From Diadema setosum (taxonomy: Eukaryota): 64,000 nucleotides of DNA. Each line of letters begins with the position of its first letter. Position 1 is the first letter of the stretch. Positions 14,067-52,790 of the stretch are shown here, one piece after another. The notes beneath the pieces are model-generated. The model was given only the letters and a program-made list of their open reading frames with translations. It did not search any database and was not told where the DNA came from. Both the position numbers and the translations under genes were made by a program. Location: positions 24,289,037 to 24,353,036 of the forward strand of contig NC_092698.1 of assembly GCF_964275005.1 (NCBI RefSeq), in the 5' to 3' direction.

Positions 14067-15180
14067 GCTGAAACAAGTATGTGTTGCATGTCTATGGAAA
14101 TATCTGGTCAGAAAAGCAACTTAAAATATATTTTATATCGACTGAAAAACTTCATTTCTCAAAATTCCCTGACTATTCTATACAATGCATTGATCTTACC
14201 ACATATCACATACTGCAATATCGTTTGGGGAAACTGTGGCTCAACTAAAATTAATCCAATTTTTACTCTCCAAAAACGTGCTGTACGTTTGATTACCAAT
14301 TCCCGTTACTTATCCCCATCCAATCCCCTATTTCATCAACTAAAAACATTGAAAATTGAGGATCTTCACACCTTTCAAACTGCTGTTTTTATGTATAAAT
14401 ATACATTTAATTGTCTTCCAAAAATTTTTGATGGCTTCTTCACTCCAAATTTCACCGTTCATTCATATCCAACACGTCAGTCGTCCGATTACCATCTCGA
14501 AAACCCCAGAATCATTTTAGCTCAAAAATCTTTAAAGCACAATGGACCAGATATTTGGAATTCTTTACCCCCTAATTTAAAACAACGTACGTCGTTGAAC
14601 ATTTTTAAACGAGAACTAAAAAACACCCTCATAATCCAGTATACTTCTGACACATAAAAATATTCATACCACCTGGTCAACAAACACCCTAAACAATGAG
14701 TTCACGGCCATAACTGAAGTAATATTCACCTCATCACACTGATACACAAAATAACACTCAACGTACAAACCAAGATTCATCCCAACACAATGCACACCGC
14801 ACTGCACCGCACGCCCTTCGCACAATTTACTTCCCACTCAGTGAGTGGCAAGATTTTCTTTATGTATCTCTTCGTTGTGCCCTTTGCACAATTACCCCCC
14901 ACTCAGTGAGTGGCAAGATTTTCTTTATGTATCTCTTTACCTGGGGCCATCTTCCTCGTCAAGCTTAGCTTATGATGATGGTCCCCTGCATTTCATTTTT
15001 ATCATTTCCTATTGCTTCCTTTCATATATGATATTCGTTCTTGAAAAAAAAAAAATGTATGTAAGATCCAAACGTTACGAATACTAGCTGTGTAAATGAC
15101 TATGTAAGTATTTTGTTGATTTGTGGATTTGTATTGATTTTGAAATGCAGAAATAAAAACTGAACTGAACTGAACTGAAA
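14067..15180 (+). mobile_element. 5'-truncated non-LTR retrotransposon (LINE). It carries the C-terminal tail of ORF2 (14067-14657), then a 3' UTR with a 58-bp internal duplication (14834-14940), and ends in gaaataaaaa(ctgaa)4.
   Basis: The ORF translation reads ...LYNALILPHITYCNIVWGNCGSTKINPIFTLQKRAVRLITNSRYLSPSNPLFHQLKTLKIEDLHTFQTAVFMYKYTFNCLPKIFDGFF...SLKHNGPDIWNSLPPNLKQRTSLNIFKRELKN. This is the conserved C-terminal domain that follows the reverse transcriptase in jockey/CR1/L2-type LINEs. An in-frame stop immediately upstream at 14064 marks the truncation point. Confidence 0.7.
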
Positions 15181-15637
15181 AAATCGAACCAGAAAAGCAA
15201 CCAATCTGATTGCATAGACAATAACAGATTATAGAGAATTATTAGCCCGTGTTTCGCAGGATGACAGTGAAGAATTCAGCGTGCTTGCAGTGTTTAATTT
15301 GAATCCCTCGAGTATCAAGCTAAGTATTGAGAATTAGTTTGGAATGCGAAGAATGTTTACAGATTGGAAATATCACTCATCGAAACAAAATGAAATTATT
15401 GCAATTGCATTTTTAAATTTTATTTTTAATTACCTAGCAATATGCTTATGCCCAAACAACGAAATTTCCAGGAAAAAGGCAAAATTTCGTTTTTCCTGTA
15501 ATACTAACTTAGATAACAATTTACGGTATAAAAGGTATAGGAGACTATCAGCTAAAATGCAATTTTACCCCTGCAAATGCAAAAAGAAATTATTTCCTGT
15601 ATATGCATATGTTTTTATCCCTGATTTCGCTTTCCAG

Positions 15638-15695
15638 TTTCGGCCCGGCTGTAGTTCCCGTTCAAGAAGAGCTTGTTAAAGCATCTATATTTCAG
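15638..15695 (+). CDS. Speculative small exon encoding (D)FGPAVVPVQEELVKASIFQ.
   Basis: Acceptor ctttccag|t and donor ttcag|gtaaag. The frame is open, and the phases are compatible with the candidate exons at 12440 and 16881. Confidence 0.25.
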
Positions 15696-15970
15696 GTAAA
15701 GATTTTCTCTTTAAAAAAAAAAAAAAAAAAAAAAAAGGACTTCACTGGTGTTCGTTTGTTTGTTTGTTTTTCATTTCATCCAAATTTGTCAGTGCATATC
15801 CTGTAAAGGGCGCTCTTTCTGAATAAGTTTCCTTTACAATGATCACATAGTAACTGTCATTTCTGGGACAATTACGCTCACGTTCATTACTCACACAAAT
15901 CTTCTAATTGGCCAAATGCTGCAGTGAAGTGTCGCGGGTTCGCCATACCTCTCGATTCTCTGATATCACC

Positions 15971-16366
15971 TTTGAAGGGATACTATAGAATTTCAGTTGA
16001 GATGGGACTTAAGGTTTCTAACGTTTTTTGATGATGATTTTTCAAGATAAAGAGAACCCTCTTATGAAGTATGGAAAGAAATATGGTTATAAGAAAAATT
16101 CGAAGTTTATTTGAGGAAAATTAGTTTTGAAATAGATGAGATGTCCGAAACAAAGCAATCCTGATAATATCGTTGTATTTTACTTTGTTTTTTGATATCT
16201 CAGGTATTTCTAGACCATTATATTCATCAAACCAACTTTGCATTCCTCTTAGAACTCTATGCTCTTTAACATTTCATACAGTGTTTTCTAGGTATCTCGC
16301 AAAAAAAAAAAGAGTTAAAAGCTTAATCCTCACGTCAACCAATGGGTTACTCTACCACCCCTTTAA
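15971..16366. mobile_element. Foldback MITE, a diverged copy of the B-variant.
   Basis: The body shares gataaagagaaccctcttatgaagtatggaaag ... ctttaacatttcatacagtgttttctaggtatctcgcaaaaaaa with the copies at 49289 and 52791. Internal halves are reverse complements of each other. Confidence 0.5.
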
Positions 16367-16880
16367 GAGTTCTTTTTATAACTTTCACATATAATCATTA
16401 ATCAACTCCCAATAAAAAATTTCTGACACATCCGACACTTATTAAAAAAGCAGGTCTCACTGTTCTTCGAGAACAGCAATCAGTTATGATGTATGTCAGC
16501 TAATCCAACATTTCATGATTAATGAATAACTGATACAGTGTACTCTGAAATACACTAGGAAACGTTAACTCAATAAGAACATCAGATTCAACTGCATCGG
16601 TGTGTTTCAAAAAGACAACTTGTATTAGGAATTTGTATAATGATATAAATAATGTAAGCGTGTGAATGACAGGAACATTATGTCACTGATGAGATATACC
16701 ACAGTGTTTTCGTCACATGATTTGATATGACAAATACACGGCTTTGCAGAATGTACACTAATACCCAGTTTTGTTTGCACGTAACCCACTAAAAATTCAA
16801 ACTATACACAATGGTGCACCCAGTACAAGTTTCCTATAATTAAGTCAGTAATGCACTCTTTGATATTTTCCTTCTGAAAG

Positions 16881-17090
16881 GAAACACACTCGTCAGCTCC
16901 GGGGAACACTCGGCTGTTTACCGTCGAGATTCAGAGAAATGTTTCGTCTTCATCAACCACGAGCTCATCTTCCTCTGTTGCCCCCCAACCGTCTAGAGAT
17001 GATTGTGACGGAAGTGCTGACGTCATTTCTACAGTCAGTGACTACCCCTTTAAAGTCGTCACGCATCTGACATCGACTGCAAGTGCTACG
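16881..17090 (+). CDS. Candidate PARP4-like exon encoding ETHSSAPGNTRLFTVEIQRNVSSSSTTSSSSSVAPQPSRDDCDGSADVISTVSDYPFKVVTHLTSTASAT.
   Basis: A 70-codon open frame lying exactly between the acceptor ttctgaaag|g and the donor ctacg|gtatat, phase 0-0. The similarity to the PARP4 region upstream of the helical domain is only weak (VVVELQ...CPFLISSHFLL). Confidence 0.35.
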
Positions 17091-18188
17091 GTATATAGTA
17101 ATTGCCATCTCTGTTCGTTGGAAGTTAAACCGGAAATGACTCATTTAAAGTGCACGGTGTACTCATAAACTTACGCAAACCTCTTGATAAAGATCATGTC
17201 GGTAGTGACTTGTTTATTGTTTCCTGTTTGGGAATAGACTGCCAATCTTGAGCACTGATTACAAGCAATAAGCCGTGATTAGGCTACACTTGCTTATGGA
17301 AAAGAAGATTGTCATTTATTGGCATTTACACCGCATTTATGCCACCTTCTCTGTTTCAATTACTAATTTTTGTCGATTGTATGAATAGGTCTTGTCTTTT
17401 CTTTTTTTTTTTCGCCACAGAGCGTTCTTCAGCGTTAATTACGAGAATGGGGAAATAAATATCTTGTTTTGAAGAATCAATGTTGATACCCTGCAAGAAG
17501 ATATATAGGAGTTTCTTACGTGTGTTGTTCGCAGTAGGCTACGGTCACAACTCAGAGCGGCGACTTACCGATTTGTAGCCTGCTCGGTCGCTACTGAAAT
17601 TTTGGCACCGCTTAGCAGTTTTGGAGATGTTGAGCAGGCTGTAAAACCCTAGCGATGACCGAGCAGTGCCCTGTCGATTTCCCGTCGGTCACCGATCGAT
17701 TTTCAGTAAAATTTTGGCGAAATATGGGGATCTGCAACGCGCAGAGTCCGAGCAGTCACCGAGCGATGCCCCATCGGCAACTGGACGATCCCCACCGGCC
17801 ACCGGCCGATTTTTAGAAAATCGCTCAGCGACCGACGGGTGATCGATAAGTCATCTACCGGTGTTTATAATCAGAAAGGCAACGCATTTTGTATGATGAA
17901 CTTTCCTTTTACAAGTAAAGGGGAAGTTATGAATCACTATCCTTATAGTTAGAACGTCTGCAGGCATGACCCTAGCACTATCGTGATCCCCCCCCCATAT
18001 CACCCTCGTGGTAGTAATAGGGCCGTCAAACATGAGTTCGGTGACAAATAATGGGGGTGGGTGGGTGATCGAGTGGCAACAAACCAACATTTGTCGGTCA
18101 GCGCGATTCCCTTATTAAAGTCAAATAATCTCCCGTCGCCATGGAAATACTCTTGTTTATTTGTTTGTTTCTGTTCACTGCATGGCAG

Positions 18189-24597: not shown

Positions 24598-24706
24598 TGG
24601 CGAAAATAAAACCCAAGCAATTGTCGCAGGAGCAACTGTTGTGTCACCGCTGAAAAAAAACTTACAATCTGATGTCCACCAACATTTGTGATTGAATTCC
24701 TTGTAG

Positions 24707-24890
24707 CACTTGCATCCAGTACTGCAAGAATGGCTACTTCTCCAGAACTCGGATGATGTTCGTCAACAAAGTGGCGCTAGGATCCGTCAAAGACTGCTAT
24801 GAAGTGGACATGACATTGAAAGAAGCTCCGGAGGGATACAACAGCACGCATGGAGTGCGGGCGTCAGTGGATAGACCTTCAGAATTCACA
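24707..24890 (+). CDS. PARP4: PARP catalytic exon encoding (S)TCIQYCKNGYFSRTRMMFVNKVALGSVKDCYEVDMTLKEAPEGYNSTHGVRASVDRPSEFT.
   Basis: Matches PARP4 SIKYSHPGETDGTRLLLICDVALGKCMDLHEKDFSLTEAPPGYDSVHGV. Acceptor cttgtag|c, donor aca|gtaaaa. Confidence 0.8.
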
Positions 24891-25397
24891 GTAAAATAAT
24901 TTTGGAATGATTTCTCACGGTCTAGTGCTATTTATCGGAAAGTCATAATGTGTTGACGAACACGAATTGATCGAAATGCATGCACACATACACATATAAT
25001 TTATATAGATATGCACACATGTAGGGCCTACATGAGTACATACTGTGTATTCTAACGAATGCATTCTGTACATGCACAGTAGTGTATCATTTATTTGAAT
25101 ATCAGATTCTATCCTACGATAGCGAATGATACATTGATATATCCATACTTAAAGGTACTATTTACTATTGGGAGCAGTGATTTTAAAAATGTTCGAATTA
25201 TCACATTTGATGCTTATGTGTAGGTCAGTTGTATCAAAACAGTCCACCATTTGTAAGAAAATTTCTCGGTAAAGTCGAAAATATAAGGAGATGCCACTAT
25301 TTTACTCAATAAACCATAAAATAATGTAGACGGTTTATTTTAGAAAGAACAATTATTATAACTATTGTTGACATTTTGTATAGCTAACAAAACTATA

Positions 25398-26859
25398 GGG
25401 TTTCCCGGTCAATTTCATACTTTTGTCATTCAAGTTCCTATTCCGAGCATTCGATTTCACACATTCTACGCTCGCAGCACTGAATCAGCAATCAAATTCA
25501 AAATCCGGTCATTCGAATTCACTATCCGAGCATTCAAATTCACTATCGGAGCATTCAAATTCACTATCGGAACATTCAAATTCACTATCGGAGCATTCAA
25601 ATTTAAGAGAGGAGCACGCATTTCATCAATGAGCATTCAAATTCATGTCAAGCTGGCGACGGAATCTCGTCGGTCATTCAAATTCGTGAATAGGCAACCA
25701 TGTTCCAAATAACTGCATTCAGTTTAAAAAGAAGTACTGAATTTAGTTAGTTTGGGGCCGTGTATGCATTTCTTTCTCATTTGGCTTTGAATATATTGGG
25801 ATTTATGATGATTATTTATTTTGCAGTAGAGGTCCACCTGTTTATTGACAATTTTGAACTCGCGCTTAGCAAATAGGAATATACAGGCACATGTCCCTCG
25901 GATTGGACATAAAATGGAGGTCCCACATGTAAGAGAGTCACAACTCATGCACGTAAAAGATCCCACTTCATTTATTCATCGCAAAGAGCAGAACATCTAA
26001 CTGGACCCCATATGGAAGACCAGCTTTTGCAGCTGAATATGGGTTATCCAGCCATCTTCTTTGATAGAAAATGAAACAAACAAACAAAAATTAGGCACTG
26101 ATGTATAGGCCTACAGACGAGCATAATACGGAGGGTTGGTTGACACTTTCGAGGAAAAAACCACAATTTCGACTATATTGACACTGATACATGAACATTT
26201 TATACGTGCTGTTTGTTGTGTATTGCTGTCTTATTGGTTTACTTTTGCGGGACTATGTGAGATCATTGTGTGTCAGTTTGTCTTAATTGTCATTATGTGG
26301 TTGGTGTTGGGGCGTTGTCAGCATGTAGTATCGTCAAGGAATATGATTACTAGTCGTTGTGTTGTTTTTATGCACTGCTGATTGGACATTGCAATTTGAA
26401 ATTTATTAAGATGAAAAACAAAGAATACATGAACAGAGAACAATGTAGAACATGTAAAATATCCTAATTACACTATATGCAAACATTCATTGGTTGTGTT
26501 GGCCCTTTTTCCTTTCTTAAAATTCTCCTCCATTTTCCTCGTTAAATTGATTGCACGAAGTAGGAACTTGATCGCCTAAAAATGAATTTGAACGCTCCAA
26601 ACAAGCTCATTGGGACTATCACGTGACTATCGCATGAATTTGAATGCACGAGTAGGAAAGTCGGTGCTCGCATTTTGAAATTGAGTGCCCAATCGTGAAT
26701 TTGATATCACGAAAACGAAATAGAACGCTCATAAATGAAATTGATCGCTCGGATTCTGAATTTGAATGCCCGAATATTTTCGCGTGCGTGCGCTGCGTGA
26801 ATTTGAATGCACATTAATGAATTTGAGTGACATAAGTATGAAATTGACCGGGAAAACCT
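25398..26859 (+). mobile_element. Non-autonomous TIR DNA transposon, copy A (~1.46 kb). It has ~35-bp TIRs (GGGTTTCCCGGTCAATTTCATACTTTTGTCA), arrays of subterminal GCATTCAAATTC-type repeats at both ends, and an embedded SINE-like module. It sits in an intron of the PARP4-like gene.
   Basis: The 5' end gggtttcccggtcaatttcatacttttgtcattcaa is the reverse complement of the 3' end ttgagtgacataagtatgaaattgaccgggaaaacc. It is flanked by TATA on both sides. Tandem cattcaaattcactatcggagc repeats lie at 25500-25620, and the inverted repeat gaatttgaatgc lies at 26630-26830. Confidence 0.7.
25905..26090 (+). mobile_element. SINE-like retroposon module (conserved 3' part ending in a (CAAA)n tail), embedded in TIR element copy A.
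   Basis: Shares ggacataaaat.gagg.ccca..tgt.agag.agtcacaactcatgc...ttcattcatcgcaaa with the standalone copy at 43700-43807. The same module occurs inverted in copy B (about 30700-30950), and there is a partial copy at 45405-45545. Confidence 0.5.
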
Positions 26860-27186
26860 ATATTATACTAATTAACATTTTTTACATTGGGTGTTTCTAT
26901 CCCTAACTGACATTTTAAAACTATTTTTAAGCACTGAAGCTAGGTTTTTGTTTCAGCTGCAAATGGTAAATACCCTGGCAATACCTTTTAATCAATCCCA
27001 TTGATATCATCAGGGGCAGATATTACGTAACCCAAATTTTACAGCAGGCTTACCAAAGGAGCATAGCTGCATATAATTATGACGTCCATTACCTACACTG
27101 TCTTGAAGCCGTCTCTTCTGTATATTTGCAAGTGCACCGCAAACAGGAAAAGTTTTCTTTTACCGAAACTTTTTCGTCCCTTGCAG

Positions 27187-28644: not shown

Positions 28645-28854
28645 GTGTACCAGAGCACAAAGTCCGACGGTGACGTTTCGGAAGCCCGTTATGTGTTCCC
28701 GCTCGACGACCGGGCGGCCGTCTGCGGCTTCGAAGCCTACATCAACGGGAAACACGTGATTGGTCAGGTGAAGACCAAAGAAAGGGCAAAAGAGGAATTT
28801 CAGGCTGCAGTCCGAGCTGGTCATGGGGCTTACTTGATGCAAGAGGAAGCGTCG
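28645..28854 (+). CDS. PARP4: VIT-domain exon encoding VYQSTKSDGDVSEARYVFPLDDRAAVCGFEAYINGKHVIGQVKTKERAKEEFQAAVRAGHGAYLMQEEAS.
   Basis: Near-colinear with the PARP4 VIT domain KYIFPLDDKAAVCGFEAFINGKHIVGEIKEKEEAQQEYLEAVTQGHGAYLMSQDAP. Acceptor ttacag|gtg, donor tcg|gttagt. 70 codons. Confidence 0.85.
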
Positions 28855-29375
28855 GTTAGTATAATTGTTGATAATATTGTGGATGGATTTTCAAATATTT
28901 CAGAATGTTGGCCTGTTTGGCGCTCCATGGTACGAGTATGCTATTTGCAAAATGACGCCACTGTTTATGACGACATTTTCCAAATCGTGCACTATTCGTG
29001 AAAGGATATCTCAAAGTAACTGTGACATCACAAAGCAATTCTGACATTGCGCGCTGCATCTTAAAGTGACCCAAAGCAATTTATTGTCGTACATTTGAAT
29101 AGTATAATGCAATTACATTCTTGCGTTTATGATATATTATGACTCCTGTCTTTTAGTTTTTTGTCTATTTCCCTCTCTATATATACATTTACAGAGGGAA
29201 AGACAGGGGAAGGGAGAGAGAGAGAAAGTGCAAATTATCAGAATCATCTCTCCATCATGTTCATAGAAGTTGCTATGTATATACTCTAGTGGCGTTCTTC
29301 TGTCCAGGGGTTATATTGAACACACAATAAGATGAATAGCAGATTTAAGCTCTTCTTCGATCGCTGTATGGACAG

Positions 29376-29922: not shown

Positions 29923-31390
29923 GGTTTTCCCGGTCAATTTCATACTTTTGTCACTCAAATTCATTAATGTGCATTCAAATTCACGCAGCGCACGCACGCG
30001 AAAATATTCGGGCATTCAAATTCAGAATCAAAGCGATCAATTTCGTTTATGAGCGTTCTATTTCGTTTTCGTGATATCAAATTCACGATTGGGCATTCAA
30101 TTTCAAAATGCGAGCACCGACTTTCCTACTCGTGCATTCAAATTCATGCGATAGTCACGTGATAGTTCCCATGAGCTTGTCTGGAGCGTTCAAATTCATT
30201 TTTAGGCGATCAAGTTCCTACTTCGTGCAATCAATTTAACGAGGAAAATGGAGGAGACTTTCAAGAAATGAAAAAGGGCCAACACAACCAATGAATGTTT
30301 GCATATAGTGTAATTAGGATTGTTCACATGTTCTACATTGTTCTCTGTTCATGTATTCTTTGTTTTTCATCTCAATAAATTTCAAATTGCAATGTCCAAT
30401 CAGCAGTGCATCCAAACAACACAACGACTAGTAATCATATTGCTTGATGATACTGCATGCTGACAACGCCCTAACACCAACCACATAATGACAATTCATC
30501 AATTTAAGACAAACTGACACACAATGATCTCACATAGTGCCGCAAAAGTAAATCAATAAGACAGCAATACACAACAAACAACAAGTATAAAATGTTCATG
30601 TATCAGTTTCAATATAGTCGACATTGTGTTTTTTTCCCTCGAAAGTGTCAACCAACCCTCCGTATTATGCTCGTCTGTAGGCCTATACAGTGCCTAATCT
30701 TTGCTTGTTTGTTTCATTTTCTATCAAAGAAGATGGCTGGATAACCCATATTCAGCTGCAAAAGCTCGTCTTCCATATGGGGTCCAGTTAGATGTTTTGC
30801 TCTTTGCGATGAATAAATGAAGTGGGATCTTTCACGTGCATGAGTTGTGACTCTCTTACACGTGGGACCTCCATTTTATGTCCAATCCGAGGGACATGTG
30901 CCTGTATATTCCTATTTGCTAAGCGCTAGTTTAAAATTGTCAATTAACAGATGCATGGACCTCTACTGAAAAATAAATAATCATCATAAATCCCATATTC
31001 AAAGCCCAATGAGAAACACATGCATACACGGCCCCAAACTAACTAAATTCAGGACTTCTTTTAAATTGAATGCAGTTATTTGGAACATGGTTGCCTATTC
31101 ACGAATTTGAATGACCGACGAGATTCCGTCGCCAGCTTGACATGAATTTGAATGCTCATTAATGAAATGCGTGCTCCTCTCTTAAATTTGAATGCTCCGA
31201 TAGTGAATTTGAATGTTCCGATAGTGAATTTGAATGCTCCGATAGTGAATTTGAATGCTCCGAGAGTGAACTCGAATGACCGGATTTTGAATTTGATTGC
31301 TGATTCAGTGCTGCGAGCGTGGAATGCGTGAAATCGAATGCTCGGAATAGGAACTTGAATGACAAAAGTATGAAATTGACCGGGAAAACC
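29923..31390 (-). mobile_element. TIR DNA transposon copy B, an inverted and ~98% identical duplicate of copy A, in the next-but-one PARP4-like intron. It is followed by an (AAT)n microsatellite at 31393-31478.
   Basis: The reverse complement of 29923-31390 aligns end-to-end with 25398-26859, including the TIRs, the subterminal repeats and the SINE-like insert. Confidence 0.7.
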
Positions 31391-31477
<87 letters not shown>

Positions 31478-31992
31478 TTGAATAATATGAATAATAACAA
31501 TGATAATTATAACATTAACAATTATTATCATCATCATTATCATTAGTAGTAGTAGTAGTATTTGTAGTAATATCATCATAGCCATCGTAATCATTTTAGA
31601 ATGATGATGATTATCATTGTTGTTATCATTGTCATTGGAATTACTGTCAAAAATGATTTGTATGTTAAACATTGTTTCTATGATATTACAGTAAAAGTGA
31701 TGCGTTAAAATCAAAATCTGTATGTTGGAGTTATACATAATGATGAAACACGAACTACAGAAGACCAAATATTATCTAATAAAATCCTATTCGTACTTGC
31801 GCCCTCAGTCAACACGTTATGCCAATGTCCCTCTCGACCCAGTTGTAAAAATGGACATCTGGCAAAGCCGAGGCATTGAATAGCAAGTCGCTTAAAGAGA
31901 GGAGATGTAACACTAAAGATACTGCTCCATGTAAACGAGACTCCTCTAACATGTTTTAATTATTTTCATGACGAAACTCCAAACACAGGAAG

Positions 31993-33996: not shown

Positions 33997-34186
33997 GCCA
34001 GCATGGCAGTCTTTTATCCTGAGTTTCCGGCGTTCGTGCCCATTGTTGACCCGGAAGTAGTTCTGCTCCTTGATTGCTCCACGTCTATGAAAGGGCAGCC
34101 GAAGGAGGACGCCAAGAAGCTGAGCAAACTGATCCTTGAGATGTTGCCAAGCCAAAGCCAATTCAATGTAATTGCATTCGGTACAG
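33997..34186 (+). CDS. PARP4: vWA-domain exon carrying the MIDAS motif: ASMAVFYPEFPAFVPIVDPEVVLLLDCSTSMKGQPKEDAKKLSKLILEMLPSQSQFNVIAFGT(G).
   Basis: Matches PARP4 ACMLVFQPDLDVDLPDLASESEVIICLDCSSSMEGVTFLQAKQIALHALSLVGEKQKVNIIQFGTG. Acceptor ccacag|gcc, donor cag|gtatgt. Confidence 0.85.
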
Positions 34187-41207: not shown

Positions 41208-42314
41208 GTAAGCAATCGTCTTGTTCTTGAGAGTCATCCGGGAAAGGCCAGGCATACCTCTTCTCTCTCCCTCCTTCCCTCCTTCCCTTCTCCTTCCAAC
41301 CATCTTTCTCTCATTTCACCTTTTCTCTCTGTCACTTAACACAAATAGATAAAGATTGGAAAAGAAATGAAATGGTGCAATCTTGAATTTGATTAATCAT
41401 TGTTTGGTTTGGTTTTATTTTTGCCTTTTTTCAAAATCACACATAACAAAAGAATACATATATTTAGAAATTAACATTACACGACTTTCCAAGAACTATA
41501 AGGAACTGGAATTCCCTGTCGTCAGAAATTGTTTCAGGGCCATCTGTGGGATCATTTCGAAACCGACTAACGGTTGATCACAGTGGCTAGTTGTTTTCTT
41601 CAAATTTTCTATGTGCTTGTAAATATCTGTAAATAAGCTGTATTATAATGCAAATAGCACAGTCTGCAAGAATCTTCAGCCTATTGAAGGAGGCAGACTT
41701 AATCAGAAGAAGAAGAAGAAGACTTGGGATTACATTTTTATCAGTATTAGCATTAAACCGTTAAGGTAGTTGTAGTCGTAGCATCTTTGTCATTGTTTTC
41801 ATCTTCCTCAAAATTACTGTCATCATTTTTTTTTTACATCGTTATCGCTACACTGGTGCCTCTAGGAGATCTGCTACTACTACAATTCGTCCTAATACCA
41901 CGTCATTATCATAATCAATATCAATACGCTTAATGAATTTGTATCTTATATTCTTGCTCAGTGGTAAATAGGATATGATATCTGGTAAAAGACAAACGCA
42001 ATATTTCTAACGAAATCCTACTCTGAATACCATGTCATGTTTTAAGGATATATCTTTACCTCTAGGCGTAGTGACCTGAGGTTTATAAATTACTTTTTGC
42101 AGGTAAATGTTTACTGTATCACCATCCCCTCCCCCTCTCTAAGAATTGTCAAACGCTAAAAAAACAAAAAACGAAAATCTGATATTTTGTGTTATCTACA
42201 CACATCTCCACTCTTGTCTTCCAACTAATTTTCCATTCATTCCGTACATGACGTCATTCGTTGCATTTTCATTGCCTCATGCTGCTGCAAATCTCCATTT
42301 CTGTCCGATACCAG

Positions 42315-42417
42315 TGCTGCCTGGCGATCTCAAAGTTCACGTTACAGGTCAAAGGTGACGCAGTACAGGCGATGGAGTGGCTCAGACCTGCTGTAGCCAC
42401 GCCCCCGGTTGTGAGCG
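42315..42417 (+). CDS. Candidate exon encoding CCLAISKFTLQVKGDAVQAMEWLRPAVATPPVVS(G).
   Basis: Acceptor gataccag|tgc and donor agcg|gtaaga. The frame is open. Confidence 0.3.
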
Positions 42418-43966: not shown

Positions 43967-45430
43967 TCAAAATCTTTTTCTTCTCGAGTCACTACACAAG
44001 TCCTGTCCAGTGCAGAGCGCAGGATCTGGCTTTGGTGTTGAAAGTCTCCAGATCATTGACAGTGCATGGCTCTGGTAGGAGGGGGCAGACCAAAAGATGT
44101 TGCATTGTCTGATCCTGCCCGCAGTTGCAAGCAGTTTCTCCATCCCTATTGTAGCCCCATTTCTGCATGAGGACTTTGCATCGTCCTGTTCCTGCCATAG
44201 GCGATTCAGACATGACCAGGTGGGCCATGCCTCACTTGAACCCGGAGGGAGGGATTCACTTGGTCCATAGGAGAGCTTATGCGTCACAGACTGGAGGTGG
44301 TTGGACCATAGGGTAATCCTTCGACCGTGGGCGGTGCCATCAAGGGATTCGGTTGAATGGAGAAAACTGCGTCTGGATTTGAGTCTCTTTTTAGCAGGTT
44401 CACGATTGTAGAATGGGTGGCGAGGGTTAACTTCTTGCTTGGTTTTCTCCATCTGTGCTGGGACCTCTCGCCTGATGTGTGGTGGGGCAATACCACACAG
44501 TAAGTAAAGGTCATCTACTCTTGTTGGTCGCAGACATCCAGAGATAGCTCTGCAAGCTGCATTCAGGACTGGGTCGATCTTTGCAGCATGGGATGACCTA
44601 CACCAGACAGGGGCTGCATACTCGGCAGTGGAGAAGCATAGAGCAAGAGCTGTGGTGCGGATGGTTTTGGCATCTGTTCCCCATCTTGTATTAGCAAGCT
44701 TCTTCAATATGCTGTTCCTTGCTCCAGCTTTTGCCTTTGTCTTGGCAATGTGCTCCTTGTCAGTAAGGGAACGATCCAGTGTGACACCTAGATAGATCGG
44801 CTTATTGGTGTGTTTAAGCCATTTTCCATACCATCTGACCCTAAACAAGTTGTCGGTTAGCATCTCTGTTCTTAAGGTGGAAGACGCTAAGTTGAGTCTT
44901 CTCAGGATTTGCACGTAGGTGATTTGCGGCATAGTAAGGAGTTAGACCTGCCAGAGCATCACTGAGTGCTTTTTCCACCTCTTCAAAGGATTGCTTCTGT
45001 GAGGCAATGCAGAGATCATCAGCATACAGGTAGCTCCTTGTACTTGGATGGATTGGTTGGTCATTCGTGTAGACGTTGAAAAGAAGCGGGGCAAGGACGC
45101 TTCCTTGCGGGAGACCGTTTTTCTGTCTCCGCCATTTGCTGCGGGTACCATTCAGATTCACGTAGAACCGCCGGTTTGAAAGCAGGTTCTGGATCAACTG
45201 TGTCAGCTTGACATCCTTGGTCATCTCAAAGACTTTCCTTGTAAGAATCCTATAGTTCACTGTATCGTAGGCCGCAGAGAGGTCAACAAAAGCTGCTCCA
45301 GTTATCAGCCCTTCCTCAAACCCATCTTCGATGTACTGTGTGAGATTCAACAGTTGGCCAGTACAGGATTTTCCTGGCCTGAAGCCTGCCTGCTCGGGAA
45401 TGAGGAGCTCATCTACAAAGGGGGCGATTC
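43967..45430 (-). mobile_element. 5'-truncated, frameshifted non-LTR retrotransposon (LINE). It carries reverse transcriptase plus the C-terminal CCHC region and is a pseudogene.
   Basis: ORF 44841-45350(-) contains RT motifs GLPQGSVLAPLLFNVYTNDQP and YADDLCIAS. ORF 43967-44932(-) continues with ...RVRWYGKWLKHTNKPIYLGVTLDRSLT.... The C-terminal motif CNCGQDQTMQHLLVCPLLPEPC lies in a different frame (43992-44228), so the frame has shifted. Confidence 0.75.
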
Positions 45431-46188
45431 ATTCATCGCAAAATGTTCAAAATAATTGGGTTATTGGAAAACATCCAATTGGATCTCACGGTAGACCAGC
45501 TAGTGCAGCTGAACATTGGCTATTCAGCCATCTTCTCAGATGAAAAATGAAACCCCCAATTTAAACAATCAATGGCAATTGCAGCTTTTAACATAGTCAT
45601 TTGCCAAATCAATCTGTTGAATTAAATCAATCCAAGTAAAAAAAAAAAAAAAAATGTGCACTAATGAAATATGTCTATACATGTCTTGGCATATTGTTTT
45701 TCGAGTACATGATCCGCTTCTTTCAAGCTCCGCTTTTCAGAATAGATCACTCTTTTTTTCCCATCGCCGTATTTACTTTTGTCATCATTGCAAAGTATGC
45801 ATAATTTCTCTCATTATCTATCACATTCATTCGTACATGTACTTTGTATTGTACTTCTTACAAATCATTGTACGATATAATTTGCAAAATGTATACATTG
45901 TATTATTCCTTATCTTTAGATGGATGAGCATTAGGTAAATTATCAACCTGAAGTTAAATCATGTTTCAAATTAAATTTGATAAAATCAAATTAATGCAAT
46001 TAAATTAAATCCAAAGTTTTAGAAGCAACGTTTATCAATTCATATGTAGGCAGGTTTACAAGAGTAATGAATAAGCCCCTTGGGTGGATAATTCATAGTT
46101 GTTGTTGTTGTTGTTTTTCTATTATGATTTGTGTTTGATGGTATTACATCTCATGGACACGCATGAAAACTAGACGATGATGATTCTG

Positions 46189-46565
46189 AGGGACTGGAAA
46201 ACAGAACTAAGCAGTTTTCTAAAGTGTAAGTAAGCTTCAAAACCTCTTTTACATGCGTTCATATTAAGTACATTCAATGTCTAAAAGTCCTTTTCAATCG
46301 TCATCAGATGAGGGATTGGAAAACAGATCTAAGCAGTTTTCTAAAGTGTAAGTAAACTTCAAAACCTCTTTTAAATGCGTTCATATCAAGTACATTCAAA
46401 TGTTTAAAAGTCCTTTTCAATCGTCATCAGATGAGGGATTGGAAAACAGAACTAAGCAGTTTTCTAAGTGTAAGTAGACTTTAAAGCATTTTTATTTCAT
46501 TTTATTTAGTGCGTCCATGTAAAGTTCGTTCAAATGTTTAAAAGTCATTTTCAATCGCCATCTAA
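46189..46565. repeat. Minisatellite of about 3 copies of a 122-bp unit.
   Basis: gagggaCtggaaaacag(a/t)actaagcagttttctaaagtgtaagtaa(g/a)cttcaaaacctcttttaaatgcgttcatat(t/c)aagtacattcaa... starts at 46189, 46311 and 46433. Confidence 0.8.
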
Positions 46566-47012
46566 TTTCTGCTAAGGCCAATGAATGATTCAGTTCTGCT
46601 TCAATATTGTTGATAAAATAGTTGGAGACACACTACACTAACATGAAGTAAATGATAACCTTATCAGTTTATCTTTTCTTAGTGATCAAAGTTTGTTGGT
46701 TTCATGTTAGTGTTTACAGCTGGTTTACTTATTTTTAGAATGATAGAATTTCACAACTACAATGAAGAACTTTCACTGCGATTTGTGGAAAATGTACAAT
46801 GGCATTTTTGTTTTGTAAGCCTATAAATTAATTGTTTCTTGGCTCTGACTATCAGAATGAGAAAAAAACAGTCTCCTCATAGTATAATATAGTTAAATTT
46901 AAAAGTTATCAACTTGCGCAATTTTTTGCATCTCATTTTTCTATCGTATATTCTCTTACGCAATAATGTAATCACATGCTGTTGGTATTAATTTTTCAGA
47001 CTGTCTGACGTC

Positions 47013-47055
47013 ATGACGAAGGGTCAACCACAAGCTGTGCATCCAGGAAGTCCAG
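47013..47055 (+). CDS. Putative first coding exon of the SNARE-motif gene: MTKGQPQAVHPGSP(G/D).
   Basis: The ATG at 47013 is preceded by a ttttcag acceptor at 46999 and followed by a ccag|gtattg donor. The phase (1 leftover nt) matches the large exon. A palindromic CRE, TGACGTCA (47006-47013), overlaps the first base of the ATG. Confidence 0.3.
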
Positions 47056-47335
47056 GTATTGACCCCATTAGTGGATTGCCCAGCTTTGGAAAGGATCGTT
47101 TGTTTTCTTCAGATTTTAACGAAAAAAAAAATAACAGGCCTATGAATGTAGTATAATTGCAGAAAGGGCACATTTATATTGTTTGAGATAGGTTTCCTAA
47201 AACAGATATGGTATCAGTAATTTATTTCTAAAGGAAGTCATGGTATCATGTTAGATTATGTAATATATATTATATACATATATTTATCTATTTATATATA
47301 AGGTGAAGTGGGCTCGGCCTCGTATCAATATATAC

Positions 47336-47374
<39 letters not shown>

Positions 47375-47678
47375 ACTTATTTATCCGTTTCTAAAGAGAC
47401 AGTTTTATTAGAGGGAGAGAATTTAGGTGATTAGCTATGTTTAAAACATTTTCTGTTGATTACAATAATGTAGATGTAAAAGGCTGATTATAAACAAACA
47501 CCACTGTGGTGTGGCTCAGGTGAACAATTAGGGCGTCTCGTCTTTGCCACCACAACCAGAAAACTTTTTAATGCAATAAAATTAACTTTGATATTAATGT
47601 GATTCCTTGGTCATTTGATAAATCTATGCTATGATTGTCTTAACAGATGTGAAAATAAGAAGTACAAGGGACTAAACA

Positions 47679-47712
<34 letters not shown>

Positions 47713-47742
47713 TATAATATATTACTTTTTTTTTTTACCAAG

Positions 47743-48491
47743 GTATCCTCATTACAGACGAGGCCACGCAAGTGCCAGTGACACCTATGATACCACGGCC
47801 CAAACCAACGCCCAAACCACTTCCCACACCACTTACTGAGTTGGATGACGAGATTGCTCGCCTTCGATCCATGGCGATTGACATGTCGATAGATATGGAT
47901 TTAGATTATTTGAAAACCAATAGTCTAAAGATGGACACACGTAAACGGGCAGTGAGAAAACGGGGATTCGCACTGGGGTTGCCGACATTTTCTTTCTGGA
48001 AATCAGAAAAGAAAGAGAAAGAGAAGCCGAAGCCAATGAAGAAGCAACGTGAAATTCCCGAAAGTTTTCGAGATATGACTGTTGCCAGTGAATTGAGCGA
48101 ACGAGGGGATAGGCTTCACGATCTGCAGGAGAAATCCGACGACCTTGCTGCCAGCGCCGCGCAATTCAGCTCCTCTACCAGGAGAATCAAATCTGGGCTA
48201 AATTGGCGGAGTTGGCTTCCTTCATTTGGCTCAGGAGAGGCGGCGCCACCACCACTAGTACCATCGCGTGGATACGGGCCCCCTTCCCCCGGATATGCAG
48301 AGCCAAAGCGATTACCAGGGGCTGTGCCACCAGCGCCACCACCAGCAGGTGGATTGCCACCGCCACAGCCGGAGCAACTCATGAAGAGATCGGCCAAGCA
48401 ACCGCCACCACCCCCTTCCCCCGAATTTGTAGAGTCAACATATTTTATAGCGCAGGGGGGTGATGACATCCCCGCCGCGATGATATCGCCG

Positions 48492-48522
<31 letters not shown>

Positions 48523-49028
48523 CTCTATTAACTTCTTCTACACAGAGACAACTACCACATTCGTTGATAGCAGAACGAGATGACGAAGGCCGCAGAGAAA
48601 AATTACCCCGTGATAGATTAGGTGATGTACCGTGTGCAGGGGGTCTTCCAACACTAGGCATAAGATATATGTCAAACAGATATATGTCAGACTATGAGGA
48701 GAGTGAGGATGAGGAGGAGGAGTACTGGGAACCCATTGAGGAGTATGAGAAGCCTACGCGAGAACCAGCTGAGAGTGGATTGCCCTCACGAGAAGCTCTT
48801 GGCGCTCCAAGGAAGTTAGCAACAGGAGACATGATGTTTGCTGCTTTGGATGATGGGGTATCCACCGCCGATGATTTATATCGTCTGGAAGACTTCTGCT
48901 TTATAGGACAGGGAGAACTCAAGAGGAAGCCAGAGCGAGAGGTGTCCGCGCTCCGGTTTCCCTTTACTGTCCGCCGAAAGCAGCTGAGCGCTGAGGACGT
49001 CAACAGGATTTTACACCGGCAGAGCAGT
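47743..49028 (+). CDS. Large coding exon of about 428 codons. An R-SNARE (synaptobrevin-like) coiled-coil motif at the N-terminal end is followed by proline-rich and acidic low-complexity regions. The acceptor may instead be at 47758.
   Basis: The continuous frame is ...IPRPKPTPKPLPTPLTELDDEIARLRSM...FRDMTVASELSERGDRLHDLQEKSDDLAASAAQFSSSTRRIKSGLNWRS...PPPPPPPPPPPP...YEESEDEEEEYWEPIEEYEK...RILHRQSS. The SNARE motif aligns with VAMP2 [44 protein letters not shown]. Donor agt|gtaaga at 49029. The ORF-track entry 47772-49046 uses a GTG as pseudo-start; the frame is open upstream to the acceptors. Confidence 0.6.
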
Positions 49029-49058
49029 GTAAGAACCTTTGGATGATATACGAGGGGA

Positions 49059-49096
<38 letters not shown>

Positions 49097-49288
49097 GTGT
49101 GTGTGTTGGGGGATGAGTGGGTGTACATGAGTGTGAGAGAGGGAGAGAGAGAGAGAGAGAGAGAGAGGGAGATCCTGTAACCGTGCATCACAAGTCTAAC
49201 AAAAAGTCACATGCCAGGATTAATCACGTGAGGACTCAAAATTGGTGAAATGGATTAACCTAGTCAGTTTTCAGTTTTTGGTATTTTC

Positions 49289-49680
49289 TTAAAGGGACTG
49301 TACAGTACTGGTTGAGGTGGGGATTCAGGTTTATAACATTCCTGAGTGAGATAATGAGAAACCTCTTATGAAATATGAAAGAGCATGTAATTTTAAGAAG
49401 GATTCAACATTTATTTCATGAAAATTGGTTTTCAAATGGCTGCGATATCCAAAAAAGTGATAATAATAAAAGGCGACAGGCCACGCCTTTTATTAGGATC
49501 TCTTTGTTTCACCTTGTTTTTGGATATCTCAGCCATTTCAAAACCGATTTTCATCAAATAAACTTTTGATACCCCTTAGAATTGCATGCTCTTTGACATC
49601 TCATAGAGTGGTTTCTGAAAATCTCGCAAAACGTTAAAAGCTAAATCCTCACCTCGACCAGAACTGTACAGTCCCTTTAA
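49289..49680. mobile_element. Foldback MITE (B-variant), complete. The GGGGCGGATCC element 49775-49935 lies immediately downstream.
   Basis: TIRs ttaaagggactgtacag / ctgtacagtccctttaa. The palindromic body contains gagataatgagaaacctcttatgaaatatgaaagagcatg. Confidence 0.65.
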
Positions 49681-50809
49681 AGAGAAGCCCTTACATTACA
49701 TAATGTTGAAGTTTGGAATCATAAAATGAATTGTAAGTTGTGTTTTTCTAGAACACTTTTTTATTGTAGAAGCAGGGGCGGATCCAGGAATTCCGTAAAG
49801 CTATAGGGGATGCGCCTTTGCAAAATTAATGGGGCGCACGCACCCCCCACATTTTTTTTAAAGGAATTTCTTTCGTTTTAACCAAAAATAAAGGGGGTGC
49901 AAGCCCGGTGCCCACCCCCCCCCCCCCCCGATCTGCCACTGAGAAGTGTGATAAGGTATATTTCAGGGGCTGCTTGTTATTTCATAGAAATCCGTACACG
50001 CTCTTCACTTTTAACTCTAAGAACTTTCGAAAAGATAATGCTACTGCTTTGAAAGTTTGCAGTGGTCTTGAGTAGAATGTGTTAATAAAGTGTGCAAAAT
50101 TTCAGCTTAATTTGATAATTCCTTCATTGTGATTGCCTAGGGGCTTTACACCCCGTTTTTTTGTTCCGTTTGTCAGACAGAGTACAGCTTGGTTAGATTA
50201 TCAACACTCTTGAATAGACCCTTAACTTCAAAGCCTCTCATCTCAGTAAGCTCCGTTCCAGGGTGTGTACTTTCTTACAATTATTTAGATATAGGTTAGG
50301 AGAGTTCATTTGCATATGGTAATGCATCATTTTCAAGCTTGGGGTTTACTCTCTCAGAATCTGTCCTTTAACTAAAAATCCATGCCTAGCGACTTTTTTT
50401 TTTGTGATGATTTGTGATGCAGGGTTACCTATGTACCTGATGATATGGGGGGGGGGGAGAGTAGGAGGGGAGGGGAGGTTCGACTGGAAAGAAAATCATT
50501 CTCATTGCCCTTGAAGTCGGGTTGATATAATCATTGACCTACTAACGAAAAGACTTTCAACGAAACTTACCACTTTCAAGTACTTTGAAAGACCTTATGG
50601 ATAGTATGTACAGAGTTAAGGGTTTTATCTAAGCCAATCTGCACTTGAAGCCACCAAAGGGTTAAACCATTATAGCTATAGCCCTCGGAGGAGAAGGCTT
50701 GACGTTGTTTGTTTGTTATTGTTTTTAAATAATAGTTCACTGAAAGCGCAGCCCATGATTAAAATATAACAATACTATATTATTCATGGACTTTTGTTTT
50801 TTTTCTCAG

Positions 50810-50882
50810 GCTGGATACTGGGAACTTAGTGCAGTCTACGAGATCTTTTCGGGGAACATCGAGACACTCGTCTCAAAGATAA
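50810..50882 (+). CDS. Exon encoding AGYWELSAVYEIFSGNIETLVSKI (+1 nt).
   Basis: Acceptor (t)8ctcag|gct, donor ata a|gtgagt. The frame is open and the phase is continuous with the 49028 exon (phase 0). Confidence 0.45.
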
Positions 50883-51028
50883 GTGAGTATCTCCTGTTTT
50901 TTCCCGTTATTATGTATTCTACCTGTTGTCCGGTATTATTGGATGGTAATGGGAAATTATAATATTCATCAACCGGAGCACAGGAATCGTCTAAAGCAGA
51001 TGGTTATCGGTAGTCCAGAGTTTACCAG

Positions 51029-51072
<44 letters not shown>

Positions 51073-51287
51073 ACACAAACACACACACAGACACAAGCAC
51101 ACAAACATATTATACACAACTCAATAGTATATGTAACCGAAGAAGTTTCCAGACATTGGATGTGTGTGTGTGTTTTTGTAATAAAGCCTCTGCTTGGCGA
51201 TGATTATGACATGCGACACAGAATGTTGGTCATTCTGTAAATGAAATGATGTATGATTTTTTTTTTAATTTGATTTTTAACTTTTAG

Positions 51288-51562
51288 ATGATAAGAGCAC
51301 AGCGGCGGATGAACCTCTTCACAAGATACTGCTTGGTACCCTGTTGGTCATGCTCTTCCTCGCCGAGTTAATCACCGCTATTCGTCGTCAGCGGAGGCTG
51401 GGTGCCGTCGGTGAGCTACACGATCTCGAGCCGACGATCTCGGCGAGTCTTGAAAAGGGAGAGCAGTGGATGGAAAGCCTGGAGCCACCGCTGGTAGAAT
51501 TGGCGCGGAGGCTTATAGACGACTTGCCTTCTGCAGAACAGCACATAGTGCTCCAGTGCTAA
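51288..51562 (+). CDS. Terminal coding exon: (N)DKSTAADEPLHKILLGTLLVMLFLAELITAIRRQRRLGAVGELHDLEPTISASLEKGEQWMESLEPPLVELARRLIDDLPSAEQHIVLQC*. It carries a predicted transmembrane helix followed by a basic stop-transfer sequence.
   Basis: Acceptor cttttag|at. The phase is continuous with the 50882 exon (a + at). A hydrophobic 19-mer, ILLGTLLVMLFLAELITAI, is followed by RRQRR. Stop TAA at 51560-51562. Confidence 0.45.
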
Positions 51563-52790
51563 ATTTCTACCGTCACCTAAAAAAAAATATATATATATAT
51601 ATCTCTTGTACGGCGAAATTCACTGTGTTACGTCACGTATACTAGTGTGTTTCTGTGTTTGACGTCACCCAAACTTTGTGCACGCAGCAGCTGTCGCAAC
51701 ATGCAACACCATAACAACATCTCTATCATTTCGAAAAAACAAAACAAAACTGCGGACTACTTCCTGTCAGAGTGCGCCAGGCTTGGACCTATAGGGAAAT
51801 CTCCCAACGACTTGACCAACCCAGGCCGTGACACCGTGGGATGGTTACGGCAGTTTCGTGACGCGGTGTATAGCAGCTTTATAGCAGTGTATTAATCTTA
51901 GAAAAAAATATTAAATGTCTTCATACAGAATAAGGAGAAGATTTTGAAGAAAAAAAAATATGACAAATTTTGACCATGAGTCAATTGGGTCCTAAATGTG
52001 GACACTGCCCAAATTCGACTGTCCCTTCACGATACGTTTTACTGCCAATATGCCTTTCATAATAGTAAAGCCTAAAAAACCTTTTCCAATAATGGACTGG
52101 TTTAGACGATTACAAATTAGTACATACCAATTCAATCTTAAACCCCATTGGAGTATAAGAAAATTGCACAAAATCATTTCTTCATTTCTCACTTTTGTTT
52201 AGTCGTATATGATGACCAGTTGAGGGTAACTTTATAAGGATCATCGCCAGTTTAATAATTAGTAATGCCGTCAGTTTGAGAGTATTCTTGAGAGTTTACA
52301 CAATAGGTTCGCTTTTTAATCTGTTGTGATGTTATGATTCATGTATTGATCATAATAAGATGAAGATTTCGTTTCCTCGTCGTCATAACGGCTTTGACTT
52401 AGAACCGTTTGACACCATTAGCCGATTGGAATCATACCCCCTCAAACCAAAGTGATGTGGAATGGGCAGAACATCCCACGATAGTCAGATCCTTGCATCA
52501 TTTTACGCCTGTGAAATTTTCTTCAGCCATAGACTGAAACCTAACAAATTATCTGTTACAATTCATCAGGCATGTTTATAGAGGGAATTTAGAAGTAATT
52601 CTCCAATCAACCAATTGAATATTTTAAATACTTGTCGATCACCGGATGAATATCAAGTGAAAACTTTAGTGTATTGGATTAGTCGATTGCGATCCATTAT
52701 TCTTTTGTAATTAAGAGTCAGCTCTGATTTGCTGTTCTGTATATCTTATCTTTGCATTTGTCTTATGATGGTTTGAACCTCTTTGTATGC

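Follow-up and report, generated by a model that had tools for sequence, protein, structure and literature searches.

The closest described counterpart of the locus reported here is human PARP4 (VPARP; UniProt Q9UKK3; PDB 9BW6, 9BW7, 11JF), in which a PARP1-like N-terminal region and the catalytic domain are followed by the VIT and vWA domains of an ITIH-like region, a Pro-rich linker and a helical domain of ~150 residues. The linker of the human protein is disordered and fast-evolving, and its all-helical MVP-interaction domain (MINT or MVPID; residues 1562/1570-1724) has been purified in soluble form from Escherichia coli and seen bound inside the vault (PMC10450202, PMC12280208). The same order of modules is predicted for a locus in a 64,000-nucleotide stretch of the genome of the sea urchin Diadema setosum (contig NC_092698.1, positions 24,289,037 to 24,353,036 of the forward strand; this whole stretch is referred to below as the window). 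A sequence-only reading of the interval 47013-51562 of this window had proposed a stand-alone, lineage-specific SNARE-like gene. Our analysis points instead to the C-terminal third of a PARP4 orthologue.

Specifically, we assign a probability of roughly 0.72 to the reading that the interval comprises the final four coding exons of a PARP4 (vault poly(ADP-ribose) polymerase) orthologue encoded in the window, with an R-SNARE-like linker and a MINT-like C-terminal domain. The whole gene likely occupies ~29 exons on the + strand, from ~15.6 kb to the stop codon at 51562, and it is likely, from splice phases and homologous gene models, that the catalytic exons and those of the interval belong to a single transcript. 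The resemblance to human PARP4 extends to the C-terminal domain, which is related at the profile level and shares the order of a QxxxGxW motif, a hydrophobic helix and an 'EW' helix. There are differences as well: an R-SNARE-like segment is not detectable in the human protein, the divergence of the C-terminal domains is too great for them to match pairwise, and the human MVP-contact residues K1618 and R1689 are, by inspection, not obviously conserved in the window. The urchin orthologues begin with a Ser-rich region (window 15627-17117) and give no N-terminal BRCT match in Pfam, whereas crinoid, mollusc and vertebrate members of the PARP4 match list possess this domain.

Exhaustive HMMER comparison of the large exon (exon D, Table 1) with 1.84 billion proteins revealed one relative, the 1813-residue XP_071477881.1 of Diadema antillarum (E=1e-160; 79% identity over its residues 1300-1587), which NCBI names 'protein mono-ADP-ribosyltransferase PARP4-like'; the second D. 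antillarum protein, XP_071487843.1, also carries the name 'PARP4-like'. XP_071477881.1 contains PARP, VIT and vWA domains according to Pfam and matches human PARP4 with E=4e-186 over residues 251-1174 (~900 residues), the runner-up being PARP2 at 8.5e-15. Placed on the window by tblastn, it yields 29 colinear matches on the + strand between 15627 and 51559, and Pfam analysis of the window's exon translations finds PARP, VIT and VWA_3 on the same strand in the order that defines a PARP4. The literature gives indirect support for an association of the protein with vaults: bands of ~200 kDa occur in purified sea-urchin vaults, and the genome encodes a VPARP homologue (PMC550661). A fused protein of ~1800 residues (~200 kDa) would fit these vault bands. 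The window itself has the appearance of animal DNA, with microsatellites, GT-AG introns, retrotransposon fragments and a G+C content of ~38%.

Other protein searches were silent. Word-indexed searches with the 558-residue model of the interval and with its C-terminal 217 residues gave no match, in an index that apparently held only proteins of up to ~1280 residues and with poly-Pro words saturating the candidates, and exact protein look-up of three alternative spliced models was likewise negative.

The connection between the interval and the upstream gene body depends on two short bridging exons, B and C. Exon B is closed by an in-frame stop just upstream and lacks an ATG, and it would therefore be coding only when spliced to exon A, the last exon of the ITIH-like region. 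Exons A, B, C and D form an uninterrupted open reading frame (ORF) with matching phases. In Strongylocentrotus purpuratus, a donor of the same type terminates the homologue of exon A. All three urchin genomes (window, D. antillarum and S. purpuratus) preserve the bridging exons. Both D. antillarum proteins are fused models that read through the equivalent of position 47013 as ...FSKVLSDVMTKGQ.... The four intervals originally proposed (47013-47055, 47743-49028, 50810-50882 and 51288-51562) do have canonical GT/AG borders and encode an in-frame ORF of 558 residues, and the two distal junctions (49028>50810 and 50882>51288) are mirrored in the annotated D. antillarum and S. purpuratus models. 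The acceptor at 47742/47743, however, is replaced by AT in D. antillarum, and the acceptor conserved in D. antillarum and S. purpuratus is 47757/47758.

Table 1. Features of the putative PARP4 orthologue in the window, with the evidence or remark for each
Feature	Positions	Strand	Evidence or remark
Upstream gene body, ~24 exons: PARP1-like N-terminal region, PARP catalytic, VIT and vWA (ITIH-like)	15627-42417	+	tblastn and Pfam
PARP catalytic domain	24702-24890	+	Pfam, 30.4 bits
VIT domain	28645-28878	+	Pfam, 70.5 bits
VWA_3 domain	33997-34185	+	Pfam, 30.3 bits
Exon A, last of the ITIH-like region (CCLAISKFTLQVKGDAVQAMEWLRPAVATPPVVS)	42315-42417	+	donor GTAAGA, phase 1
Bridging exon B (DDDSEGLENRTKQFSK)	46174-46225	+	in-frame stop just upstream, no ATG
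Bridging exon C, 56 nt, (V)LSDVMTKGQPQAVHPGSP	47000-47055	+	behind AG acceptor; contains ATG 47013
Large exon D: linker with SNARE-like segment, Pro-rich tracts and acidic patch, then the first part of the C-terminal helical domain	47758-49028	+	conserved acceptor
R-SNARE homology segment ASELSERGDRLHDLQEKSDDLAASAAQFSSSTRRIKSGLNWRSW	48084-48215	+	Pfam PF00957, layer mapping, PDB matches
Pro-rich linker portion with the Pro12 run (48489-48524)	48243-48524	+	similar tract in S. purpuratus
Acidic patch EESEDEEEEYWEPIEEYEK	48696-48752	+	conserved in D. antillarum; oyster model '..SDEEDYEKP'
All-helical C-terminal domain (candidate MINT/MVPID counterpart): end of exon D, exons E and F	48921-51559	+	
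Exon E (AGYWELSAVYEIFSGNIETLVSKI), carries the G-x-W motif	50810-50882	+	
Terminal exon F, with stop codon and hydrophobic helix ILLGTLLVMLFLAELITAI	51288-51562	+	helix at 51326-51382

The second element of the reading is a segment within the linker that, by profile comparison, is genuine synaptobrevin-like (R-SNARE) homology. The stretch first singled out, SELSERGDRLHDLQEKSDDLAASAAQFSSSTRRIKS, aligns without gaps to VAMP2 residues 54-86 with 12 of 33 positions identical by our own count, and the HMMER comparison proposed for it places PF00957 (Synaptobrevin) above its curated cut-off (29.8-31.8 bits against 26.4; E=1e-7 to 5e-7). This is the sole Pfam match, here as in the other urchin fragments that were scanned separately, and it covers positions 25-66 of the 89 in the profile. 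The top PDB sequence matches of the segment are VAMP4, Snc1 and VAMP2, VAMP4 (2NPS) reaching E=8.7e-4 with a single sequence as query. A profile built from the four PARP4-linked motifs (window, D. antillarum, S. purpuratus and oyster), with no VAMP included, retrieved R-SNAREs nearly exclusively from the PDB: VAMP4 at 2.9e-10, VAMP2 at ~3e-7 and tomosyn (1URQ) at 1.8e-5, along with Nyv1, Snc1, VAMP8, Ykt6, Sec22b and VAMP7. Full-length human PARP4, present in the same PDB database, gave no match to this profile. Since a profile made from PARP4 motifs alone is specific to R-SNAREs, pure chance is an unlikely source of the likeness.

The register of the motif required correction. From layer -2 to layer +8 the residues are V, L, R, L, L, S, L, A, F, T and I, a normal R-SNARE pattern with hydrophobic or small side chains throughout +1 to +8. 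In VAMP2, R56 ('LERDQKL') and not R66 ('DDRADAL') forms the zero layer, and R56 aligns to the Arg of 'SERGDRL' (codon 48102-48104), as do the corresponding Arg residues of VAMP4 and Snc1; this Arg is conserved in D. antillarum, S. purpuratus and the oyster. The Lys that had been assigned to the zero layer (48132-48134) pairs with VAMP2 R66 and occupies a surface position next to layer +3, where VAMP4 and Snc1 also have Lys. The claim thus arose from a zero layer misplaced by ten residues, an error that is easily made with SNARE motifs. Judging by the layer mapping, the motif survives in its membrane-proximal two thirds only (layers -2 to +8), and the complete 16-layer register (-7 to +8) is not present.

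Among brevin R-SNAREs the nearest is VAMP4 (2NPS), with which the window segment shares the heptads of layers -2 to +8, the zero-layer Arg, the ERGxxLxxLxxKSxxLxxxAxxF signature and a Trp-containing, juxtamembrane-like 'NWRSW' after the motif. Brevins differ in that the window motif has no transmembrane or lipid anchor directly after it, ~300 residues of Pro-rich and acidic linker being found there instead, and in that it lies in the middle of a protein of ~1800 residues, between the ITIH-like region and the putative vault-docking domain. The sole hydrophobic stretch is 340 residues past the motif, inside the helical domain. The sequence-only reading had recognised both the missing adjacent anchor and the mismatch with brevins, tomosyn and amisyn, and these points stand. 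Tomosyn (STXBP5) and amisyn (STXBP6) likewise carry an R-SNARE homology helix without an anchor, for which only non-fusogenic complexes are possible. In these proteins, however, the motif is complete and sits at the extreme C-terminus, whereas that of the window is partial and internal. They combine the motif with WD40 propellers or a Sec3-like PH domain, as against PARP, VIT and VWA here; Pfam finds no WD40 or PH domain in the window model, the D. antillarum protein or the window exons. SNARE binding has been demonstrated for tomosyn and amisyn and is hypothetical for the window segment. The SNARE-mimicking motif of IFITM3/PRRT2 offers a conceptual comparison only: that report describes a short SNARE-like helix in another family, proposed as a modulator of SNARE assembly, and locates it in a CD225 domain (PMC11730294).

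The segment forms a conserved island between diadematoid and camarodont urchins, as judged by local alignment. In S. purpuratus, the motif aligns to that of the window without gaps over 30 residues (z=5.3; 0/1000 shuffles), and the register is kept at the Arg and at layers +1 to +8, against ~22% identity for the rest of the linker; the only other islands across this split are the poly-Pro tract, an acidic/aromatic patch and the C-terminal domain. A global MAFFT alignment had paired the S. purpuratus motif with an upstream window segment, ELDDEIARLR...FSFWK, and this candidate orthology was rejected on its local z of 1.3 versus 5.3. At layers -1 to +6 the window and D. antillarum have the same residues. 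Between the window and S. purpuratus, six of nine layer positions are identical and all nine compatible, against 5 of 20 identical non-layer positions (own count). Synaptobrevin is also the only Pfam match in the linker of the full-length D. antillarum protein.

The linker evolves rapidly (dN/dS, the ratio of non-synonymous to synonymous substitution rates, 0.6-1.0 against D. antillarum) and is probably disordered. The (Pro)12 run, PPAPPPAGGLPPPQPE and the acidic patch that had been described from the sequence are all present. A WASP-type VCA reading of this poly-Pro, acidic and Trp-containing region was dropped, as inspection revealed no WH2-like LKKV motif.

Outside the urchins, the motif appears in a PARP4-like model of the oyster Saccostrea cucullata, in which the exon after the ITIH-like region encodes IDDIHSKMKENVEKVLERGEKLDNLTEKSQTLM, spanning layers -5 to +4 and matching Synaptobrevin with 38 bits. 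By our own residue count, the oyster and urchin motifs are both nearest to VAMP4. In the oyster contig (JAVVLV010007607.1), the VAMP-like exon (16010-16108) is flanked by similar short repeats, and the next exon (~16540-16720) encodes a diverged N-terminal fragment of actin (SPVIMDMGSLFMKAGFAGDDAPRAEF...GQKDSYVG; Pfam Actin, 34 bits). These VAMP-like and actin-like exons have either been captured or result from faulty gene prediction.

The explanation that competes most strongly concerns what the segment does rather than what it is: it may be a non-functional relic, or a chance coiled-coil likeness in a disordered linker, that binds no SNAREs. We give this explanation somewhat less than an even chance. 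Several observations weigh on its side and against a working SNARE helix. The dN/dS of the segment is 1.04 against D. antillarum (44 codons only), and its identity of 66% is the lowest in the 3' region; a short-term ratio near 1 leaves the present function of the segment uncertain. In the D. antillarum copy, layer +4 is followed by a helix-breaking Pro and layer +7 is Asp; it reaches only a sub-threshold 14.4 bits, while the S. purpuratus large-exon translation reaches 18 bits (cut-off 26.4) with Synaptobrevin as its sole Pfam match. In the window, layers -7 to -3 are charged (K, K, E, E, D), a Pro is found at -15, and there is a one-residue deletion relative to the oyster motif. The motif was not detected in human PARP4 with the PARP4-motif profile against the PDB, and no SNARE-like exon was found in or downstream of the PARP4-like loci of Haliotis, Mytilus and scallop or in the Lottia linker. 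Finally, the human linker is disordered and evolves rapidly (PMC10450202). Against a relic or chance likeness stand the specificity of the PARP4-only profile for R-SNAREs, down to 3e-10, the Synaptobrevin matches at the same place after the ITIH-like region in three urchins and an oyster, the preferential conservation of the layers, and the position of the segment among the few recognisable islands across the diadematoid-camarodont split. As between relic and function we place about equal weight on the two, and the best description of the locus, from these comparisons, is a PARP4 orthologue with an embedded R-SNARE-like segment.

The most probable mode of action can be outlined. By analogy with human PARP4, the C-terminal domain would attach the enzyme to the inner surface of the vault shell, and the linker would flexibly tether the catalytic and ITIH-like modules. 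As no anchor adjoins it, the SNARE-like helix should be unable to drive membrane fusion; if still functional, it might rather pair with syntaxin/SNAP-25-type Q-SNARE helices in a non-fusogenic manner resembling that of tomosyn and amisyn, and such pairing could recruit or tether PARP4, and possibly vaults, to membranes. Alternatively, the helix may be the slowly decaying relic of an ancient VAMP4-like exon. In its strongest form, the proposal would be that the PARP4 of urchins (perhaps of ancestral bilaterians, given the oyster model) uses a VAMP4-derived R-SNARE helix as a working membrane-targeting device, which tethers PARP4 and vaults to specific membranes by zippering onto the membrane-proximal half of syntaxin/SNAP-25-type Q-SNAREs. 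We consider this full proposal unlikely as it stands.

To our knowledge, neither vaults nor their resident enzyme PARP4 have an established function. According to an in-situ study from 2026, vaults are found in association with membranes, and a motif that would mediate this has yet to be described for them (PMC13100048). Our literature search found no paper linking PARP4 with synaptobrevin or a SNARE motif, and the combination of an R-SNARE helix with PARP4 domains appears to be unreported. A motif kept across the whole diadematoid-camarodont divergence, and possibly in a bivalve, leads to a concrete hypothesis, namely that it binds Q-SNAREs and places PARP4 or the vault on membranes. A working helix would supply the membrane-association motif so far undescribed for vaults; should it prove a decaying relic, the locus would be a PARP4 orthologue of the ordinary kind. 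In practical terms, the analysis corrects a plausible but wrong gene model (in its start codon, its promoter element and one acceptor), the position of the zero layer, and the probable division of the S. purpuratus gene in RefSeq that is described below.

The C-terminal domain is the putative link to the vault. Its motifs occur in the order QxxxGxW, hydrophobic helix and 'EKGEQW' helix, and the whole domain, including what had been considered a tail, is 91% identical to that of D. antillarum with a dN/dS of 0.35. For comparison we used human MINT residues 1579-1724, taken from PDB sequence records, and the corresponding domain of Lottia, spliced from three terminal exons; these two match each other with E=6e-9. 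A profile of the three urchin C-termini aligned to human and Lottia MINT in hhalign with a probability of 83% and E=9.5e-6 over 63 columns, pairing QSSAGYW with QTEDGFW and LHKILLGTLLVMLFLAELI with human CLLDLIATMLVLQFI (PARP4 1622-1636). Furthermore, a phase-0 intron before the G-x-W motif and a phase-1 intron before the helix exon are common to the window, D. antillarum, S. purpuratus and Lottia. Some results weigh against this assignment. The window domain compared with human MINT alone is not significant (hhalign E=0.15; shuffle z 1.2-3.0), BLASTP of the window against Lottia gave no match, and the C-terminal profile found no PARP4 among PDB sequences. Two AlphaFold2 models, one from a single sequence and one from a 5-row alignment, are all-helical at low confidence (predicted local distance difference test, 49-50), and Foldseek with these low-confidence models was uninformative. 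The window helix is also very hydrophobic, with a Kyte-Doolittle mean of 2.49; calculation by hand gave ~1.45 in the human helix and ~1.3 in a single S. purpuratus 19-mer.

This hydrophobicity underlies a further explanation, in which the diadematoid helix is a true membrane anchor and PARP4 is tethered to the membrane with a short lumenal tail. The hydrophobic stretch on which a distal transmembrane helix had been predicted does exist: it comprises 19 residues, its mean lies well over the usual cut-off of 1.6, it is flanked by HK and RRQRR, and it is identical in the window and D. antillarum except at two positions. What probably does not hold is its interpretation. The helix aligns with a core helix of the human MVP-interaction domain, a soluble protein, and a Glu is conserved in mid-helix; the S. 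purpuratus equivalent, ILLTLLLILYLREVLSQM, has only 11 consecutive hydrophobic residues before an Arg-Glu. The alignment and the conserved Glu together make a membrane anchor improbable. The tail, which measures 59 residues after the hydrophobic stretch (RRQRR and 54 more) and not 57 as had been stated, is helical and conserved like the residues before the helix, which fits one folded domain and not the two sides of a membrane. Hence, the supposed transmembrane helix is most likely, on the strength of the profile alignment, a buried core helix of the vault-docking domain.

An independent gene starting at ATG 47013, perhaps with a cAMP response element (CRE) promoter, and encoding a lineage-specific, membrane-anchored SNARE-like protein of ~558 residues is the remaining explanation. 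It can draw on the hydrophobic stretch and RRQRR just discussed, on the excess of the octamer TGACGTCA in the window, and on the S. purpuratus annotation, which also weighs against a single PARP4 gene: RefSeq ends S. purpuratus PARP4 at 1255 residues and models the equivalent of the C-terminal part as a separate gene, XP_030842424.1 (496 residues; 565 in an older model), named 'formin-like protein 20'. Against it, an AG acceptor precedes the ATG by 13 nt, with the frame open as far as this acceptor, and exon C, starting at 47000, continues the upstream ORF, so that the proposed initiator is an internal Met. Both D. antillarum models read through this position, and the homologous S. purpuratus exon (LLHGMIREGK) has its Met elsewhere, the older model starting further upstream. 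The octamer, which is indeed present at 47006-47013, encodes S-D-V-M; because it lies inside a coding exon, the reading of a CRE at an initiator falls, and a CRE overlapping the start codon is in any case no promoter arrangement. Even a separate transcript would give a protein of PARP4 linker and MINT-like domain, and no new SNARE family. We regard an independent gene as improbable.

The S. purpuratus locus itself supports the PARP4 reading on closer inspection. Its synteny is as in the window. The 1255-residue model reads through a perfect GTAAGA donor into the intron, and both parts can be joined with canonical sites and correct phases via exons 26377-26464 and 26911-26966 of AAGJ06000837.1. 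The second of these (LLHGMIREGKPETEQPLPR) has 56 nt and the same phases as exon C, and the older RefSeq model, XP_011661876.1, uses exactly these two bridging exons, 26377-26464 being the counterpart of exon B. Our reconstruction of the distal 496 residues is identical to XP_030842424.1, an agreement that lends independent support to the equivalents of the two distal junctions. It seems, therefore, that RefSeq probably splits one S. purpuratus PARP4 gene in two (AAGJ06000837.1, 26040-29900), on the evidence of these joinable frames. The name 'formin-like protein 20', like 'CDK12' in the older model, is presumably driven by poly-Pro and other low-complexity tracts.

Two other gene models in this family call for comment. 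In D. antillarum, an A-run in JBFRCO010000039.1 (44793-44857) differs by a single base (GAGAAAATTAC vs GAGAAAAATTAC), and this breaks the frame of the large exon; XP_071477881.1 bypasses the break by an artificial 'intron' of 65 nt, and the other copy, XP_071487843.1, is intact. The break is either an assembly error or a haplotype frameshift. In Lottia gigantea (KB201931.1, 20282-28530), a 'partial' PARP4 model of 990 residues ends after the ITIH-like region. Further downstream on the same strand are acidic, FG-rich and Pro-rich ORFs and then the three exons of the clear MINT-like domain, so the 990-residue model is truncated.

The window also contains several repeats. The palindromic octamer TGACGTCA occurs in eight copies, against 0.95 expected from dinucleotide-preserving shuffles (12385, 17018, 32421, 32462, 36523, 42249, 47006 and 51660). 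Neighbouring units of a 41-bp tandem repeat account for two copies and coding exons for another two (17018 and 47006); the copy at 42249 is just upstream of exon A, and that at 51660 is in the 3' flank. Fragments of non-long terminal repeat retrotransposon ORFs encoding reverse transcriptase are found at 43967-45350 (-) and 14079-14657 (+), the former within the 3.7-kb intron between exons A and B. The intron after the large exon holds an element of ~380 bp (49300-49685) with terminal inverted repeats (aaagggactgtacagtact...agaactgtacagtcccttta), which matches JBFRCO010000039.1 in both orientations at unrelated positions, a distribution that suggests a repeat resembling a miniature inverted-repeat transposable element. 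Finally, another repeat is present twice, in opposite orientation, in introns of the PARP4 gene (25365-25712, + strand; 31076-31768, - strand), the two copies having in common the ORF text ...GFPGQFHTFVIQVPIPSIRFH...FKFTIGAFKFKRGARIS...SFKFVNRQPCSK.

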